This document shows positions 1-6,589 of a DNA stretch of 6,589 nucleotides, piece by piece. A program made the position numbers and the translations under genes. A model generated the notes under the pieces. It made no database searches. It was not told where the DNA came from and was given only the letters and a program-made list of their open reading frames with translations. The stretch lies in IMG/VR virus record IMGVR_UViG_2563366849_000001; one strand, written 5' to 3'. This stretch comes from a virus. Lineage: Duplodnaviria; Heunggongvirae; Uroviricota; Caudoviricetes. How positions within the stretch are numbered: position 1 is the stretch's first letter; every line of letters starts with the position of its first letter.

Positions 1-198
1 GTTTTTTACTACGAGCGCGCCGTGTGTGCGATGGCGACCGCGTCGCTTTATGAGCGTTACCGCGGCGTGGATGCCAGTGCGAAAGGCGACAAGAAGGCCG
101 ACAGCATTGACAGCACCATTGATGAACTGTGGCGGGATATGCGCTGGGCGGTGGCGCGTATCCAGGACAAGCCGCGCTGCATCGTGAGTCAAATCTGA
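1..198 (+). CDS. L: 3' end of head completion/stabilisation protein gpL (5' part lies upstream of the window)
   Basis: Frame 1 is open from the window edge to TGA at 196-198 (…DELWRDMRWAVARIQDKPRCIVSQI*). The stop overlaps the ATG of the next gene (TGATG). Position immediately upstream of X matches P2 order L-X-Y. Identity is by synteny rather than a recognised motif. Confidence 0.6.
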   Translation, partial: VFYYERAVCAMATASLYERYRGVDASAKGDKKADSIDSTIDELWRDMRWAVARIQDKPRCIVSQI

Positions 199-401
199 TG
201 AAGACCTTTGCGCTACAGGGCGACACGCTCGACGCCATTTGTGTCCGGTATTACGGGCGCACTGAGGGCGTGGTCGAGACTGTGCTCGCCGCAAATCCGG
301 GACTGGCTGAACTGGGTGCGGTGCTGCCGCACGGCACCGCCGTCGAACTGCCCGACGTTCAGACCGCGCCCGTGGCTGAAACTGTCAATCTGTGGGAGTA
401 A
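198..401 (+). CDS. X: Tail protein gpX, small LysM-like protein (67 aa)
   Basis: ATG at 198 overlaps the upstream stop; 67 aa (MKTFALQGDTLDAICVRYYGRTEGVVETVLAANPGLAELG…NLWE), the size and sequence type of P2 gpX with a LysM-like 'DTLDAIC…YYG' signature. The ORF-track start at 129 is an in-frame upstream extension that overlaps L and is unlikely to be used. Confidence 0.85.
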   Translation: MKTFALQGDTLDAICVRYYGRTEGVVETVLAANPGLAELGAVLPHGTAVELPDVQTAPVAETVNLWE

Positions 402-404
402 CGC

Positions 405-689
405 ATGACAGCAGAAGAAAAAAGCGTCCTGTCGCTTTTCGTGATTGGGGTGCTGATTGTTGTCGGCAAGGTGCTTGCCGGTGGTGAACCCATCACCCCG
501 CGTCTGTTTATCGGGCGCATGTTGCTCGGTGGTTTTGTCTCGATGGTTGCCGGTGTTGTTCTGGTGCAGTTTCCTGACCTGTCACTGCCTGCGGTGTGCG
601 GCATCGGCTCCATGCTGGGTATCGCCGGTTATCAGGTGATTGAGATTGCCATTCAGCGCCGCTTTAAGGGCAGGGGGAAGCGGAATTAA
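405..689 (+). CDS. Y: Holin gpY (class I, three predicted transmembrane segments, basic C-terminus)
   Basis: GGGAG Shine-Dalgarno at 394-398, ATG at 405. 94 aa with three hydrophobic stretches (SVLSLFVIGVLIVVGKVLAGG / LFIGRMLLGGFVSMVAGVVLV / LPAVCGIGSMLGIAGYQVI) and a charged tail QRRFKGRGKRN. Follows X as in P2. The last few codons may be altered by the adjacent deletion junction. Confidence 0.8.
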   Translation: MTAEEKSVLSLFVIGVLIVVGKVLAGGEPITPRLFIGRMLLGGFVSMVAGVVLVQFPDLSLPAVCGIGSMLGIAGYQVIEIAIQRRFKGRGKRN

Positions 690-951
690 AACGGCCAGCG
701 TGACGGCTTCTGATTCTGTTACTGCCACGGTGCCGGTGGTCATGGTGAAAGCATCAACCCGCGTCACCCTGGACACACCGGAGGTGGTCTGCACCAACAG
801 GCTGATTACCGGCACGCTGGAAGTGCAGAAGGGCGGGACGATGCGCGGCAACATTGAACACACCGGCGGTGAACTCTCATCAAACGGGAAGGTACTGCAT
901 ACCCATAAACACCCCGGCGACAGCGGCGGCACAACCGGGGGACCTCTATGA
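679..951 (+). pseudogene. V: 3' fragment of baseplate spike gene V (about the C-terminal 90 codons; N-terminal domain deleted)
   Basis: Frame open from 640 but no plausible start or RBS of its own; its 5' part overlaps the Y 3' end. Translation …VPVVMVKASTRVTLDTPEVVCTNRLITGTLEVQKGGTMRGNIEHTGGELSSNGKVLHTHKHPGDSGGTTGGPL* resembles the C-terminal beta-helix tip of P2-type gpV spikes, including the His-x-His cluster. The TGA at 949-951 overlaps the W start (ATGA), as in an intact V-W junction. The full-length gene in P2 is roughly 210 codons. Confidence 0.7.
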
Positions 952-1295
952 CAGCGCGTTATCTCGGAATGAATCGCAGTGATGGCCTGACTGTCACTGA
1001 CCTTGAGCATATCAGCCAGAGTATCGGCGATATCCTGCGCACGCCGGTCGGCTCACGGGTGATGCGTCGTGATTACGGCTCGTTGCTGGCGTCAATGATT
1101 GACCAGCCGCAGACCCCGGCGCTTGAGTTGCAGATTAAGGTCGCCTGTTACATGGCGGTGCTGAAATGGGAACCCCGCGTCACCCTGTCATCTGTCACCA
1201 CGGCGCGCAGTTTTGACGGGCGAATGACGGTCACGTTAACCGGCCAGCACAACGACACCGGCCAGCCACTTTCGTTAACCATCCCTGTGAGTTGA
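948..1295 (+). CDS. W: Baseplate assembly protein gpW (gp25/GPW family, 115 aa)
   Basis: ATG at 948 coupled to the V stop; 115 aa (MTARYLGMNRSDGLTVTDLEHISQSIGDILRTPVGSRVMRRDYGS…) typical of the GPW/gp25 baseplate wedge family and the P2 gpW size. The stop at 1293-1295 lies 4 nt before the J start. Confidence 0.9.
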   Translation: MTARYLGMNRSDGLTVTDLEHISQSIGDILRTPVGSRVMRRDYGSLLASMIDQPQTPALELQIKVACYMAVLKWEPRVTLSSVTTARSFDGRMTVTLTGQHNDTGQPLSLTIPVS

Positions 1296-1299
1296 AACT

Positions 1300-1473
1300 A
1301 TGCCGATTATCGACCTGAACCAGCTACCCGCACCGGATGTGGTCGAGGAGCTGGACTTTGAAACCATTCTTGCCGAACGCAAGGCGACACTGATTTCCCT
1401 TTATCTGGGAGCTTTACGCCGCAACCGGTGTGGATGCCGTACCGATTCGTTTTGCAGGCTCTTACCAGCGTGA
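1300..1473 (+). pseudogene. J: Truncated baseplate gene J: about 35 native N-terminal codons, then out-of-frame read-through into FII sequence ending at TGA 1471-1473
   Basis: ATG at 1300 follows W as in P2. Translation MPIIDLNQLPAPDVVEELDFETILAERKATLISLY matches the gpJ N-terminus; from about 1405 the frame continues as LGALRRNRCGCRTDSFCRLLPA*, which is FII DNA read in the wrong frame. The intact gene in P2 is about 300 codons. Confidence 0.75.
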
Positions 1474-1708
1474 CGATACCGGCGAAACGGTGGCCGTCGA
1501 GGTGGTCATGCGTGGACGTCAGAAAGAAATCGACACCGGCGAGGGTAAACAGGGAGAAGACACCGAGTCGAAAATCTCCGTGGTCTGCACTTATTTCCGG
1601 CTGACGATGGACGGTAAGGAGCTGGTCGAAATTGACACCATCAACATGATTGAGAAGGTGAACGGCGTCGACCGGCTGGAGCAACACCGCCGCAATATCG
1701 GCCTGTGA
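1403..1708 (+). pseudogene. FII: 3' fragment of tail tube gene FII (about the C-terminal 100 codons, no native start)
   Basis: In the frame ending at TAA/TGA 1706-1708 the translation is IWELYAATGVDAVPIRFAGSYQRDDTGETVAVEVVMRGRQKEIDTGEGKQGEDTESKISVVCTYFRLTMDGKELVEIDTINMIEKVNGVDRLEQHRRNIGL*, which I recognise as the C-terminal part of P2-type tail tube protein FII (about 172 aa when intact). An in-frame stop at 1391-1393 lies just upstream; the ORF-track 'start' at 1430 is a GTG inside the gene. Located immediately upstream of E as in P2. Confidence 0.75.
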
Positions 1709-1715
1709 TTTTCAT

Positions 1716-1736
1716 CCGGTCAGCCTGGCTGACCGG
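1716..1736 (+). repeat. Perfect inverted repeat (CCGGTCAGCC-T-GGCTGACCGG) in the FII-E intergenic region; potential RNA stem-loop
   Basis: Read directly from the sequence: 10-nt arms that are exact reverse complements, 8 nt after the FII stop and about 28 nt before the E start. It is not followed by a U-run, so it is unlikely to be a classical intrinsic terminator; possibly an RNA stability or processing element. Confidence 0.45.
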
Positions 1737-1764
1737 TTAACCCTGATTCATAAGTGAGAAAACC

Positions 1765-2040
1765 ATGAACAAAGAAAATGTCATTACCCTGGACAATCCG
1801 GTCAAACGTGGTGAGCAGGTTATCGAACAGGTCACGCTGATGAAACCCAGTGCCGGGACGCTGCGCGGTGTCAGTCTGGCAGCGGTCGCGAACTCCGAAG
1901 TCGATGCACTGATTAAGGTGCTGCCGCGCATGACGGCACCGATGCTGACCGAGCAGGAAGTCGCCGCGCTGGAACTGCCTGACCTTGTGGCGCTGGCCGG
2001 TAAGGTGGTCGGTTTTTTGTCGCCGAACTCGGTGCAGTAA
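1765..2040 (+). CDS. E: Tail assembly chaperone gpE (91 aa)
   Basis: ATG at 1765, 91 aa ending TAA 2038-2040; contains the T TTT TTG slippery heptamer near its 3' end. Position between FII and T and the size match P2 gpE. Confidence 0.85.
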   Translation: MNKENVITLDNPVKRGEQVIEQVTLMKPSAGTLRGVSLAAVANSEVDALIKVLPRMTAPMLTEQEVAALELPDLVALAGKVVGFLSPNSVQ

Positions 2041-2192
2041 CGTTCCCGAAAAATCTGTCGGTCGATGACCTGATGGCGGATGTGGCAGTGATATTTCACT
2101 GGCCGCCATCAGAACTGTATCCCATGAGCCTGACCGAACTCATCACATGGCGCGAAAAGGCGCTCCGGCGAAGCGGAAACACGAATGAGTAA
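1765..2192 (+). CDS. E+E': gpE+E' tail assembly chaperone made by programmed -1 ribosomal frameshift (142 aa predicted)
   Basis: Slippery heptamer T-TTT-TTG at 2013-2019 in the E frame. The -1 frame is open from there (FFVAELGAVTFPKNLSVDDLMADVAVIFHWPPSELYPMSLTELITWREKALRRSGNTNE*) to TAA at 2190-2192, which overlaps the T start at 2185. 85 E codons plus 57 E' codons gives 142 aa. Same architecture as the known P2 E/E' and lambda G/GT chaperone pairs. Confidence 0.75.
2013..2019 (+). promoter_or_regulatory. -1 programmed frameshift slippery site (T TTT TTG)
   Basis: X-XXY-YYZ heptamer in the E reading frame (GGT TTT TTG), with a 57-codon open -1 frame downstream that ends exactly at the T start region. 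Confidence 0.7.
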
Positions 2193-4632
2193 CAATGTAA
2201 AATTACAGGTATTGCTCAGGGCTGTTGACCAGGCATCCCGCCCGTTTAAATCCATCCGTACAGCGAGCAAATCGCTGTCGGGGGATATCCGGGAAACACA
2301 AAAATCACTGCGCGAGCTGAACGGTCACGCATCCCGTATTGAGGGATTCCGCAAGACCAGTGCACAGCTCGCCGTGACTGGTCATGCACTTGAAAAGGCA
2401 CGGCAGGAAGCCAAAGCCCTTGCCACACAGTTTAAAAACACCGAACGTCCGACCCGTGCTCAGGCGAAAGTGCTGGAATCAGCAAAGCGAGCGGCGGAAG
2501 ACTTACAGGCGAAATATAACCGCCTGACGGATTCCGTTAAACGCCAGCAGCGGGAACTGGCCGCTGTGGGAATTAATACCCGCAATCTTGCACATGATGA
2601 GCAGGGGCTGAAAAACCGTATCAGTGAAACCACCGCACAGCTTAACCGTCAGCGCGACGCACTGGCGCGTGTCAGTGCACAACAGGCAAAACTTAACGCA
2701 GTCAAACAGCGTTATCAGGCCGGAAAAGAACTGGCAGGAAATATGGCCTCAGTGGGCGCTGCCGGTGTGGGGATTGCTGCTGCGGGAACGATGGCCGGAG
2801 TTAAGCTGCTGATGCCCGGTTATGAGTTTGCGCAGAAAAACTCAGAATTGCAGGCTGTGCTCGGTGTGGCAAAAGACTCCGCCGAAATGGCTGCACTACG
2901 CAAGCAGGCGCGCCAGCTCGGTGACAATACCGCCGCCTCAGCGGATGATGCGGCCGGTGCGCAGATTATCATTGCGAAAGCGGGTGGAGATGTTGATGCC
3001 ATTCAGGCGGCAACGCCGGTCACGCTGAACATGGCGCTGGCGAACCGTCGCACGATGGAAGAAAACGCCGCCCTGCTGATGGGGATGAAATCTGCCTTTC
3101 AGCTTTCAAACGATAAGGTCGCTCATATCGGGGATGTTCTCTCCATGACGATGAACAAAACCGCCGCCGATTTTGACGGTATGAGCGATGCGCTGACCTA
3201 TGCCGCACCTGTGGCAAAAAATGCCGGTGTCAGCATTGAAGAAACCGCCGCAATGGTCGGGGCGCTGCATGATGCAAAAATCACCGGTTCAATGGCGGGG
3301 ACGGGAAGCCGTGCCGTGTTAAGCCGCCTGCAGGCACCGACGGGAAAAGCATGGGATGCACTCAAAGAGCTTGGAGTGAAAACCTCAGACAGCAAGGGAA
3401 ACACCCGGACAATATTTACCATTCTGAAAGAAATGCAGGCCAGTTTTGAGAAAAACCGGCTCGGTACTGCCCAGCAGGCTGAATACATGAAAACTATTTT
3501 CGGGGAGGAGGCCAGCTCAGCCGCCGCCGTGCTGATGACTGCCGCCTCAAGCGGAAAGCTGGACAAACTGACCGCTGCGTTTAAAGCCTCAGACGGGAAG
3601 ACCGCCGAGCTGGTAAATATCATGCAGGACAACCTCGGCGGCGACTTTAAGGAGTTTCAGTCCGCTTATGAGGCGGTGGGGACTGACCTGTTTGACCAGC
3701 AGGAAGGCGCACTGCGTAAGCTCACTCAGACGGCCACAAAGTATGTGTTAAAACTCGACGGCTGGATCCAGAAAAACAAATCACTGGCGTCAACCATCGG
3801 CATCATTGCCGGTGGCGCGCTGGCGCTTATTGGCATCATCGGTGCAATTGGTCTTGTAGCCTGGCCGGTTATCACCGGCATCAATGCCATCATCGCGGCA
3901 GCAGGCGCAATGGGTGCAATCTTCACGACGGTTGGTAGTGCCGTTATGACGGCCATCGGGGCGATTAGCTGGCCGGTTGTGGCCGTGGTGGCTGCAATTG
4001 TCGCCGGGGCGTTGCTTATCCGTAAATACTGGGAGCCTGTCAGCGCATTCTTTGGCGGTGTGGTGGAAGGGCTGAAAGCGGCATTTGCGCCGGTGGGGGA
4101 ACTGTTCACGCCACTTAAACCGGTGTTTGACTGGCTGGGTGAAAAGTTACAGGCCGCGTGGCAATGGTTTAAAAACCTGATTGCCCCGGTCAAAGCCACC
4201 CAGGACACCCTGAACCGTTGCCGTGACACGGGCGTCATGTTCGGGCAGGCACTGGCTGACGCGCTGATGCTGCCGCTTAATGCGTTCAACAAACTGCGCA
4301 GTGGTATTGACTGGGTACTGGAAAAACTCGGTGTCATCAACAAAGAGTCAGACACACTTGACCAGACCGCCGCAAGGACTAATGCCGCCACGTATGGCAC
4401 CGGTGGTTATATTCCGGCGACCAGCTCTTATGCAGGCTATCAGGCTTATCAGCCGGTCACGGCACCGGCTGGCCGCTCTTATGTGGACCAGAGTAAAAAC
4501 GAATATCACATCAGCCTGACCGGTGGTACTGCGCCGGGGACACAGCTCGACCGCCAGTTACAGGATGCGCTCGAAAAATACGAGCGGGATAAACGTGCGC
4601 GCGCCCGTGCCAGCATGATGCATGACGGTTAA
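2185..4632 (+). CDS. T: Tail tape measure protein gpT (815 aa)
   Basis: 815-aa ORF directly after E/E'. The N-terminal third is Ala/Gln/Arg/Lys-rich and predicted coiled-coil; the central part is alpha-helical and Ala-rich; a long Gly/Ala/Ile-rich hydrophobic segment lies at about nt 3778-4030 (IGIIAGGALALIGIIGAIGLVAWPVITGINAIIAAAGAMGAIF…); C-terminal globular part. Size and architecture are typical of a myovirus tape measure and equal P2 gpT length. Confidence 0.9.
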   Translation: MSNNVKLQVLLRAVDQASRPFKSIRTASKSLSGDIRETQKSLRELNGHASRIEGFRKTSAQLAVTGHALEKARQEAKALATQFKNTERPTRAQAKVLESAKRAAEDLQAKYNRLTDSVKRQQRELAAVGINTRNLAHDEQGLKNRISETTAQLNRQRDALARVSAQQAKLNAVKQRYQAGKELAGNMASVGAAGVGIAAAGTMAGVKLLMPGYEFAQKNSELQAVLGVAKDSAEMAALRKQARQLGDNTAASADDAAGAQIIIAKAGGDVDAIQAATPVTLNMALANRRTMEENAALLMGMKSAFQLSNDKVAHIGDVLSMTMNKTAADFDGMSDALTYAAPVAKNAGVSIEETAAMVGALHDAKITGSMAGTGSRAVLSRLQAPTGKAWDALKELGVKTSDSKGNTRTIFTILKEMQASFEKNRLGTAQQAEYMKTIFGEEASSAAAVLMTAASSGKLDKLTAAFKASDGKTAELVNIMQDNLGGDFKEFQSAYEAVGTDLFDQQEGALRKLTQTATKYVLKLDGWIQKNKSLASTIGIIAGGALALIGIIGAIGLVAWPVITGINAIIAAAGAMGAIFTTVGSAVMTAIGAISWPVVAVVAAIVAGALLIRKYWEPVSAFFGGVVEGLKAAFAPVGELFTPLKPVFDWLGEKLQAAWQWFKNLIAPVKATQDTLNRCRDTGVMFGQALADALMLPLNAFNKLRSGIDWVLEKLGVINKESDTLDQTAARTNAATYGTGGYIPATSSYAGYQAYQPVTAPAGRSYVDQSKNEYHISLTGGTAPGTQLDRQLQDALEKYERDKRARARASMMHDG

Positions 4633-4646
4633 GGAGGTGACGAAAA

Positions 4647-5126
4647 ATGATGCTCGCGTTAGGTATGTTTGTTTTTATGCGCCAGACGCTGCCACACCAG
4701 ACCATGCAGCGTGAATCAGATTATCGCTGGCCGTCAAATTCCCGTATCGGTAAACGGGACGCCTACCAGTTTCTCGGTGTGGGTGAGGAAAACATCACGC
4801 TTGCCGGTGTGCTTTATCCAGAACTGACCGGCGGCAAGCTGACGATGACCACGCTCAGGCTGATGGCCGAGGAAGGCCGGGCGTGGCCGTTGCTGGATGG
4901 CACCGGCATGATTTACGGCATGTATGTCATCAGCAGGGTGAGTGAAACAGGGAGTATTTTCTTTGCAGACGGCACACCCCGAAAAATTGATTTTACGCTG
5001 TCGCTCACCCGCGTTGATGAATCACTGGCCGCGCTTTATGGCGATATCGGTAAACAGGCGGAATCGCTCATCGGTAAGGCCGGCAGTATGGCGACCAGAT
5101 TCACGGGTATGACGGGGGCGGGATAA
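4647..5126 (+). CDS. U: Tail protein gpU (tail terminator/tail formation protein, 159 aa)
   Basis: Strong SD AGGAGGT at 4632-4638, ATG at 4647; 159 aa; the stop TAA at 5124-5126 overlaps the D start (TAATG). Position and size match P2 gpU. Confidence 0.85.
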   Translation: MMLALGMFVFMRQTLPHQTMQRESDYRWPSNSRIGKRDAYQFLGVGEENITLAGVLYPELTGGKLTMTTLRLMAEEGRAWPLLDGTGMIYGMYVISRVSETGSIFFADGTPRKIDFTLSLTRVDESLAALYGDIGKQAESLIGKAGSMATRFTGMTGAG

Positions 5127-6289
5127 TGCTGGATGCACTGACATTTGATGCAGGCAGTACGCTGACGCCGGATTACATGCTGATGCTCGACAGCAGGGAT
5201 ATTACCGGCAATATCAGCGACCGTCTGATGAGCATGACCCTGACGGATAACCGGGGCTTTGAGGCTGACCAGCTTGATATTGAACTGAACGATGCCGACG
5301 GGCAGGTCGGGCTGCCGGTTCGTGGCGCTGTCCTGACGGTGTATATCGGCTGGAAAGGTTTTGCCCTGGTATGCAAAGGGAAATTCACCGTTGATGAGGT
5401 TGAACACCGGGGCGCGCCGGATGTGGTTACCATCCGCGCCCGGAGTGCAGATTTTCGCGGGACGCTCAATTCCCGCCGTGAAGGCTCATGGCATGACACC
5501 ACGCTCGGTGCGATTGTTGAGGCGATAGCCTCCCGTAACAGGCTGGAAGCCAGTGTCGCGCCGTCACTGGCCGGAATTAAAATCCCGCACATCGACCAGT
5601 CGCAGGAGTCTGATGCGAAATTCCTGACCCGTCTTGCAGAACGCAACGGCGGTGAGGTGTCGGTAAAAATGGGAAAACTGTTGTTTCTCAAAGCGGGGCA
5701 GGGAGTGACGGCCAGCGGTAAAAAAATCCCGCAGGTCACCATAACCCGCAGCGACGGCGACCGCCATCATTTTGCGATTGCTGACCGTGGAGCCTACACC
5801 GGTGTAACGGCAAAATGGCTACACACCAAAGACCCGAAGCCTCAAAAGCAGAAGGTAAAACTGAAACGCAAAAAGAAAGAGAAACACCTGCGCGCACTGG
5901 AGCACCCGAAAGCGAAACCGGTCAGGCAGAAGAAAGCGCCTAAAGTACCGGAAGCGCGTGAAGGTGAATACATGGCCGGTGAGGCTGACAACGTTTTTGC
6001 CCTGACCACGGTATATGCCACGAAAGCGCAGGCCATGCGCGCCGCTCAGGCGAAGTGGGATAAGCTGCAACGGGGCGTTGCGGAGTTCTCCATCAGTCTG
6101 GCTACCGGTCGTGCTGATATTTACACGGAAACACCGGTTAAAGTGTCAGGCTTTAAGCGCGTCATAGACGAGCAGGACTGGACAATCACTAAGGTGACAC
6201 ATTTTCTGAATAATAGCGGCTTCACGACGTCCTTGGAGCTTGAGGTCAGGCTTTCTGATGTGGAGTACGAAACAGAAGATGATGAGTGA
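5126..6289 (+). CDS. D: Tail protein gpD (phage late control gene D family, 387 aa)
   Basis: ATG at 5126 translationally coupled to U; 387 aa, the P2 gpD size; last gene of the F-E-T-U-D tail operon, directly upstream of ogr. Contains an unusually lysine-rich segment, residues about 233-280 (KDPKPQKQKVKLKRKKKEKHLRALEHPKAKPVRQKKAPKVPEAREGE). Confidence 0.9.
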   Translation: MLDALTFDAGSTLTPDYMLMLDSRDITGNISDRLMSMTLTDNRGFEADQLDIELNDADGQVGLPVRGAVLTVYIGWKGFALVCKGKFTVDEVEHRGAPDVVTIRARSADFRGTLNSRREGSWHDTTLGAIVEAIASRNRLEASVAPSLAGIKIPHIDQSQESDAKFLTRLAERNGGEVSVKMGKLLFLKAGQGVTASGKKIPQVTITRSDGDRHHFAIADRGAYTGVTAKWLHTKDPKPQKQKVKLKRKKKEKHLRALEHPKAKPVRQKKAPKVPEAREGEYMAGEADNVFALTTVYATKAQAMRAAQAKWDKLQRGVAEFSISLATGRADIYTETPVKVSGFKRVIDEQDWTITKVTHFLNNSGFTTSLELEVRLSDVEYETEDDE

Positions 6290-6307
6290 TGCTTTTATTT
6301 TATCTGT

Positions 6308-6336
6308 TTGTTTTATAAGGATAAATTAACTAAAAT
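6308..6336 (+). promoter_or_regulatory. Candidate sigma70 promoter for ogr (TTGTTT - 17 nt - TAAAAT)
   Basis: -35-like TTGTTT at 6308-6313 and -10-like TAAAAT at 6331-6336 with a 17-nt spacer, in the AT-rich gap between the D stop (6289) and the ogr start (6371). Sequence-pattern prediction only. Confidence 0.4.
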
Positions 6337-6370
6337 GGCACTATCAACAAAACCGGAAGAGGTGCTCGCG

Positions 6371-6589
6371 ATGTTTCATTGTCCTTTATGCCAGCATGCC
6401 GCACATGCGCGTACAAGTCGCTATATCACTGACACGACAAAAGAGCGTTATCACCAGTGCCAGAACGTGAATTGCAGCGCCACGTTCATCACTTATGAGT
6501 CGGTACAGCGATACATCGTGAAGCCGGGAGAAGTCCACGCCGTAAGGCCGCACCCGTTGCCGTCAGGGCAGCAAATTATGTGGATGTAA
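6371..6589 (+). CDS. ogr: Ogr, Cys4 zinc-finger activator of P2 late promoters (72 aa, complete)
   Basis: ATG at 6371 with GAAGAGG RBS about 8 nt upstream; 72 aa MFHCPLCQHAAHARTSRYITDTTKERYHQCQNVNCSATFITYESVQRYIVKPGEVHAVRPHPLPSGQQIMWM*, matching as far as I can recall the P2 Ogr / E. coli OgrK sequence with the C-x2-C-x22-C-x4-C zinc-binding motif (Cys4, 7, 30, 35). The stop TAA is the last three bases of the window. The ORF-track start at 6308 adds a 21-aa extension that I consider spurious. Confidence 0.9.
   Translation: MFHCPLCQHAAHARTSRYITDTTKERYHQCQNVNCSATFITYESVQRYIVKPGEVHAVRPHPLPSGQQIMWM

Follow-up and report, generated by a model that had tools for sequence, protein, structure and literature searches.

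The window analysed here, a 6,589-nt stretch of viral DNA, corresponds exactly to bases 1-6589 of the Escherichia coli draft scaffold KE137287.1 (GCA_000408785.1) and carries the right-hand part of a P2-like (Peduovirus) prophage. Its last gene is ogr, which lies directly downstream of D and is the final gene before the prophage end, as in P2. The stop codon of D (6287-6289) is followed by an 81-nt A+T-rich spacer that leads to the ogr ATG at position 6371, from which translation yields an uninterrupted reading frame of 72 codons plus a stop (6371-6589). The features of the window, together with the three blocks that align collinearly with P2 and the codon differences of the intact genes from their P2 counterparts, are collected in Table 1.

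Table 1. Genes, regulatory features and P2-collinear blocks of the window, with codon differences from P2.
Feature	Position in window	Strand	Basis	P2 coordinates	Codon differences from P2 (synonymous / non-synonymous)
Block 1 (L', X, Y)	1-679		BLAST vs P2	6312-6990	
Block 2 (V', W, J')	675-1411		BLAST vs P2	10667-11403	
Block 3 (FII', E, T, U, D, ogr)	1401-6589		BLAST vs P2	19066-24254	
Gene L, 3' part, cut by scaffold start	1..198	+	BLAST vs P2		
Gene X, intact, 67 aa	198..401	+	Pfam, P2 comparison		5 / 0
Gene Y (holin), last codons altered by deletion junction 1	405..689	+	Pfam, P2 comparison		
Gene V (spike), 3' fragment	680..951	+	BLAST; Pfam Phage_spike, Apex	10672-10943	
Gene W, intact, 115 aa	948..1295	+	Pfam, P2 comparison		5 / 0
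Gene J (baseplate), 5' fragment, truncated at deletion junction 2	1300..1403	+	BLAST		
Gene FII (tail tube), 3' fragment	1404..1708	+	BLAST; Pfam Phage_tube, profile 76-165 only	19069-19373	
Gene E (tail assembly chaperone), intact	1765..2040	+	Pfam, P2 comparison		5 / 0
Gene T (tape measure), intact, 815 aa	2185..4632	+	Pfam PhageMin_Tail, P2 comparison		72 / 11
Gene U, intact, 159 aa	4647..5126	+	Pfam Phage_P2_GpU, P2 comparison		9 / 1
Gene D (tail/baseplate hub), intact, 387 aa as in P2	5126..6289	+	Pfam Phage_GPD		21 / 2
ogr promoter (candidate), -35, TTGTTT (TTG = annotated P2 signal)	6308..6313	+	aligns to P2 minus_35_signal	23973-23975	
ogr promoter (candidate), -10, TAAAAT	6331..6336	+	aligns to P2 minus_10_signal	23996-24002	
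Shine-Dalgarno core GAGG, 8 nt 5' of ATG	6359..6362	+	read from sequence; same in P2 and K-12		
Gene ogr, intact, 72-aa C4 zinc-finger activator of P2 late transcription	6371..6589	+	profiles, P2 identity	24036-24254	2 / 0

The protein translated from positions 6371-6589 (MFHCPLCQHAAHARTSRYITDTTKERYHQCQNVNCSATFITYESVQRYIVKPGEVHAVRPHPLPSGQQIMWM) matches the Pfam Ogr_Delta profile PF04606 over 47/47 profile positions (E=1.1e-21; 76.9 bits against a cut-off of 26.3), the NCBIfam equivalog NF007241 over 72/72 positions (177.6 bits against a cut-off of 116) and PHROG 603, which is labelled 'transcription regulation'. All 72 residues are identical to those of P2 Ogr (100%), and at the DNA level the two genes agree at 217 of 219 positions, both differences being synonymous. 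The protein departs from K-12 OgrK at a single residue (A57V; 71/72 identical), is 64% identical to PSP3 Pag, and shares 38% and 26% identity with the two halves of P4 Delta, a 166-aa tandem duplication. Its cysteines, at positions 4, 7, 30 and 35, are spaced as C-X2-C-X22-C-X4-C, the zinc motif given for Ogr (PMC3931495), and are invariant in a protein alignment of the window Ogr, OgrK, PSP3 Pag and each half of P4 Delta. PSP3 Pag and P4 Delta, which thus share the C4 zinc-finger signature, are also activators of P2/P4 late promoters (PMC8628076). A protein identical to the window Ogr is encoded in 71 phage records, and a PDB sequence search for Ogr relatives with a solved structure returned none, its sole match being a marginal one to the NrdR zinc-ribbon (E=0.039). 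Residue 42 of the window protein is the wild-type tyrosine; the ogr52 allele, which bypasses rpoA109, is Y42C. The first-pass annotation had described a complete 72-aa Ogr with all four zinc-coordinating cysteines and had proposed an alignment with P2 Ogr, P4 Delta and OgrK; reading frame, profile scores and alignment all bear that description out, and the gene is, as judged from its sequence, a complete orthologue of P2 ogr.

The candidate promoter of ogr consists of the hexamers TTGTTT and TAAAAT, 17 nt apart, within the D-ogr spacer. The P2 record AF063097 annotates a minus_35_signal (23973-23975) and a minus_10_signal (23996-24002) between D and ogr, and in the alignment to this record window positions 6308-6310 and 6331-6337 fall on these two signals without substitution. 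Both hexamers are invariant across P2, K-12 ogrK and the window. The site and spacing given in the first-pass annotation therefore stand, but its description of the promoter as near-consensus was overstated: TTGTTT matches TTGACA at 3/6 positions and TAAAAT matches TATAAT at 5/6, for a total of 8/12, and a match of at least 8/12 occurs at 73 sites in the window, counting both strands. A consensus promoter scan of the whole window did not call the site, which falls below the scan threshold, and the four sites that it did call are a chance number (3.7 expected). By consensus alone the ogr promoter is not above chance, and the argument for it therefore rests on orthology with the P2 annotation; the alignment makes the candidate orthologous to the ogr promoter annotated in P2. 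Compared with P2, the 81-nt spacer carries four substitutions (6292, 6297, 6315 and 6342), none of them in the hexamers. Two of these could matter, one lying in the 17-nt spacer between the hexamers (6315) and the other about 6 nt past the -10, near the expected start (6342).

In PSP3, pag has its own TTGCAA-N16-TATTAT in the same relative position, and it seems to be the position of a sigma-70-type promoter before the late activator gene, rather than its sequence, that is conserved. The PSP3 D-pag spacer (L009, 223-303) is unrelated in sequence to the D-ogr spacer of P2. Two further open reading frames overlapping ogr were rejected: a 93-aa TTG-initiated frame at 6308-6589, which is an in-frame upstream extension of ogr through the promoter, and a minus-strand 55-aa frame at 6386-6553, which is without support.

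Immediately after the ogr stop codon, 40 nt of the source scaffold are identical to the P2 'terminator for ogr transcript and F operon' and fold into a strong hairpin (-21.3 kcal/mol, z = -5.3) with a U run behind it; a search of the source locus against Rfam gave no match. With promoter, ribosome-binding site, reading frame and terminator all in place, the ogr transcription unit is predicted to be complete. It shares its -35, -10, Shine-Dalgarno and terminator sequences, as well as its place after D and before att, with P2 ogr (AF063097 24036-24254).

BLAST of the window against P2, read together with the P2 feature table, resolves the remainder of the element into three collinear blocks separated by two internal deletions (Table 1). 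The first deletion spans approximately P2 6991-10671 (~3.7 kb; junction at window 679/680). Lost with it are K, lysA, lysB, lysC, R, S and orf30, the O-operon terminator, the activator site and start of pV, and the 5' part of V. The second spans approximately P2 11396-19068 (~7.7 kb; junction at window 1400-1404). Its losses are I, H, G, fun(Z) and FI, the V-operon terminator, the activator site and start of pF and, at its two edges, the 3' part of J and the 5' part of FII. Only two to three bases are shared at the junctions (AA at 678-679 for the first deletion, TTA at 1401-1403 for the second), which points to an origin by illegitimate recombination. The resulting layout, X-Y-V'-W-J'-FII'-E-T-U-D-ogr, contains no annotated promoter or terminator before the ogr terminator, and the Ogr-binding dyad TGT-N12-ACA has no match in the window (0 against 1.7 expected), because pV and pF are both deleted. 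Judging by this gene content, the element would be without the capacity to make sheath, tube, baseplate, fibres or endolysin. The first-pass annotation had called the structural module crippled, which agrees with the loss of essential late and tail genes through the two deletions relative to P2; its statement that the element is dead is supported as regards tail assembly and lysis, whereas for the head, replication and immunity genes it would be no more than a possibility, as the window starts inside L, at the scaffold end.

Deletion junction 1 falls within the last codons of Y, and the predicted holin consequently ends in ...GKRN, compared with ...GKQ in P2; it also carries an additional M13V difference. 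The endolysin K, which holin Y would serve, is among the deleted genes. In gene E, the slippery site of the E/E' programmed -1 frameshift (GGTTTTTTG, window 2012-2020) is the same as in P2. A terminator scan flagged a hairpin followed by a T run at 1992-2014 as 'terminator-like', probably a false positive arising from the slippery T run.

Beyond the ogr terminator, the source scaffold continues into the P2 Int P-arm and then into pflB, focA and ycaO. Within scaffold positions 6670-6907 the prophage end ceases to match P2 some 13 nt short of the annotated attP core. The scaffold flank is 99.9% E. coli. The prophage that carries the window ogr sits between pflA and pflB in the source E. coli strain, and the ogr-pflB junction is shared by 403 of 5426 complete E. 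coli genomes. In one strain, E. coli LR-45, the pflA/pflB site is occupied by an intact P2-like prophage of 33 kb that has the same gene order and likewise ends on the right with ogr; this prophage is 99.7% identical to window positions 1401-6589. Given the divergence in the att region and the use of the pflA/pflB site instead of a classical P2 site, the integrase/att specificity of the element is probably different from that of P2.

The gene itself is widespread. Of 5426 complete E. coli genomes, 2072, more than one third, contain the 300-bp ogr segment (window 6290-6589) at an identity of at least 95%, and it is annotated as ogrK in all of them; some 470 of the carriers are without an intact U-D region. 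In K-12, the defective P2 remnant PR-X holds ogrK (b2082) and the D pseudogene yegZ in about 0.6 kb adjoining cyaR, which agrees with the remark in the first-pass annotation that ogr-like genes persist in cryptic P2 remnants. K-12 ogrK likewise encodes 72 aa and has the same promoter hexamers. Whereas PR-X comprises only ogrK and yegZ, the window element keeps L', X, Y, V', W, J', FII', E, T, U and D and adjoins pflB. The window ogr is thus an ordinary gene in a common situation that is already known.

We consider it highly likely that the window ogr belongs to a P2-like prophage and is served by a sigma-70 promoter of its own, in an element that has lost two blocks of late genes and in which the ogr unit was left untouched. 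By extension from the P2 system, RNA polymerase holoenzyme would initiate at Pogr a few bases past position 6336, transcription would be low and constitutive, and a short monocistronic ogr mRNA would end at the hairpin just beyond the window. Birkeland and colleagues reportedly described in 1991 two routes of P2 ogr transcription, one starting at the gene's own promoter and one, in the late phase of infection, by read-through from pF; in the window element, pF is deleted and late read-through into ogr is therefore impossible. The 72-aa product, given its 100% identity to P2 Ogr, would bind one zinc through Cys4, Cys7, Cys30 and Cys35. It would be expected to bind the dyad TGT-N12-ACA, a recognition sequence described previously (PMC3931495), whose centre lies close to position -55 in P2/P4 late promoters, and to activate these promoters through contact with the alpha C-terminal domain of RNA polymerase; Ogr binding to inverted repeats near -55 and its requirement for the alpha subunit have both been reported (PMC3152322).

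As no dyad is left in the window, an effect of Ogr must be exerted in trans. Candidate targets would be P4-like satellites and other P2-like elements, whether resident as a second prophage or arriving as phage, and the promoters pO and pP of the same element might be added to them if they survive beyond the scaffold end. The first-pass annotation had cited trans-activation of incoming P2/P4-family elements, and trans-activation of P4 by Ogr is indeed established in the literature (PMC7552001, PMC8628076). For the window ogr itself, we infer both expression and trans-activation by analogy with these systems.

Whether this ogr belongs to a crippled element at all depends on the deletions, which we accept as real with very high confidence, since the same junctions occur in two separate assemblies and the bases shared at them are too few for an assembler artefact. 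The competing view, that the crippled module is a product of draft assembly and that ogr comes from an intact prophage, is very unlikely. It draws on the position of the window start, at a scaffold end within L, on the state of the only other assembly with the junction (GCA_000351965.1), where N runs, a second copy of FII'-E and an isolated piece of L occur, and on a whole-window search in which the two deletions together were found in no complete E. coli genome, the high-coverage matches there being multi-piece alignments to intact or differently deleted prophages. Yet the same J'/FII' junction, with an identical 57-aa fusion product, and the same minus-strand 116-aa open reading frame across the Y/V' junction are present in both assemblies, two to three exact shared bases are far too short for an assembler misjoin, and the source scaffold KE137287.1 is without N runs. 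With the deletions taken as real, the state of the undeleted genes bears on how the presence of ogr should be read. X, W, E, T, U and D match their P2 counterparts exactly in length, are free of internal stops and, like ogr, differ from P2 mostly by synonymous changes; because genes untouched by deletion are equally intact, the deletions look recent and the remnant young, and ogr does not appear to have been singled out for preservation in this lineage. The first-pass annotation had ogr surviving next to a crippled module, which holds for its intactness but not as selective retention. We put at about even the chance that ogr is a neutral passenger, intact only because the deletions are recent, so that its survival would be uninformative on selection or function in the host; the near-identity to the intact same-site prophage of LR-45 over window 1401-6589 fits this reading as well. 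It is nonetheless compatible with a functional ogr, removing only the selective-retention argument, and within the species as a whole ogr does tend to be kept longer than the genes beside it: 2057 genomes retain at least 80% of the 300-bp segment, compared with 1584 genomes for at least 80% of U+D, and K-12 retains ogrK next to a D pseudogene.

A separate matter is whether the intact gene is expressed. A silent ogr, with Pogr inactive in this element, no pF read-through and no Ogr made, would be in keeping with the poor -35 hexamer (3/6; 8/12 for the promoter as a whole), with the loss of both pF and pV, and with the two substitutions relative to P2, one in the promoter spacer and one near the start site. 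We regard this as unlikely, however, as the hexamers are the same as in P2 and in K-12 ogrK, and as the cryptic ogr genes of E. coli K-12 and B, as reported by Slettan and colleagues in 1992, are constitutively transcribed at a low level and allow both strains to support a P2 ogr-deletion phage. Moreover, genomic SELEX in vitro places the K-12 ogrK-yegZ spacer upstream of ogrK among the sites that RpoD holoenzyme binds by itself (PMC3946193), and an ogr amplicon was obtained by RT-PCR in uninduced BL21(DE3), which its authors blamed on primers annealing elsewhere (bioRxiv 10.1101/2022.11.09.515794). The gene layout by itself would also accommodate a remnant that acts as a positive-feedback amplifier, in which Ogr, if pO survives, would drive its own synthesis through the X-to-ogr string; we attach next to no probability to this arrangement. 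Were it true, the remnant might be kept because it either mis-times late expression of incoming P2-like phages or primes resident P4-like satellites and their defence cargo.

Under the favoured reading, that of an intact ogr with its own promoter in a twice-deleted prophage, the window is of value mainly for annotation, since it represents the right-hand end of a common P2-like prophage, integrated at pflA/pflB, in a form derived by deletion. P2 Ogr, to which the window protein is identical, is among the best-studied phage late activators, and working ogr genes in cryptic E. coli P2 remnants that complement ogr-defective P2 have reportedly been known since 1992. In a strain carrying the window element, complementation of ogr-defective P2 derivatives would be expected, as would background activity in reporter or packaging systems based on P2/P4 late promoters (pF, Psid).

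As regards the source assemblies, the J'/FII' junction has no exact match among species-representative genomes, a set to which the source, a draft assembly of E. coli, does not belong. In the sister assembly GCA_000351965.1, N and a truncated M lie upstream, amid N-run gaps; the long N runs, the duplicated FII'-E segment and the stray L fragment lie around its prophage (L005, 1854-8548 and 11747-16036). This suggests that a repeat, either an IS element or a second P2-like prophage, breaks both assemblies near gene L. In the intact LR-45 prophage, genes for a reverse-transcriptase family protein and an AAA ATPase (L010, 9971-12314) occupy the place where P2 has its old/tin cargo, and this pair looks like anti-phage defence cargo.
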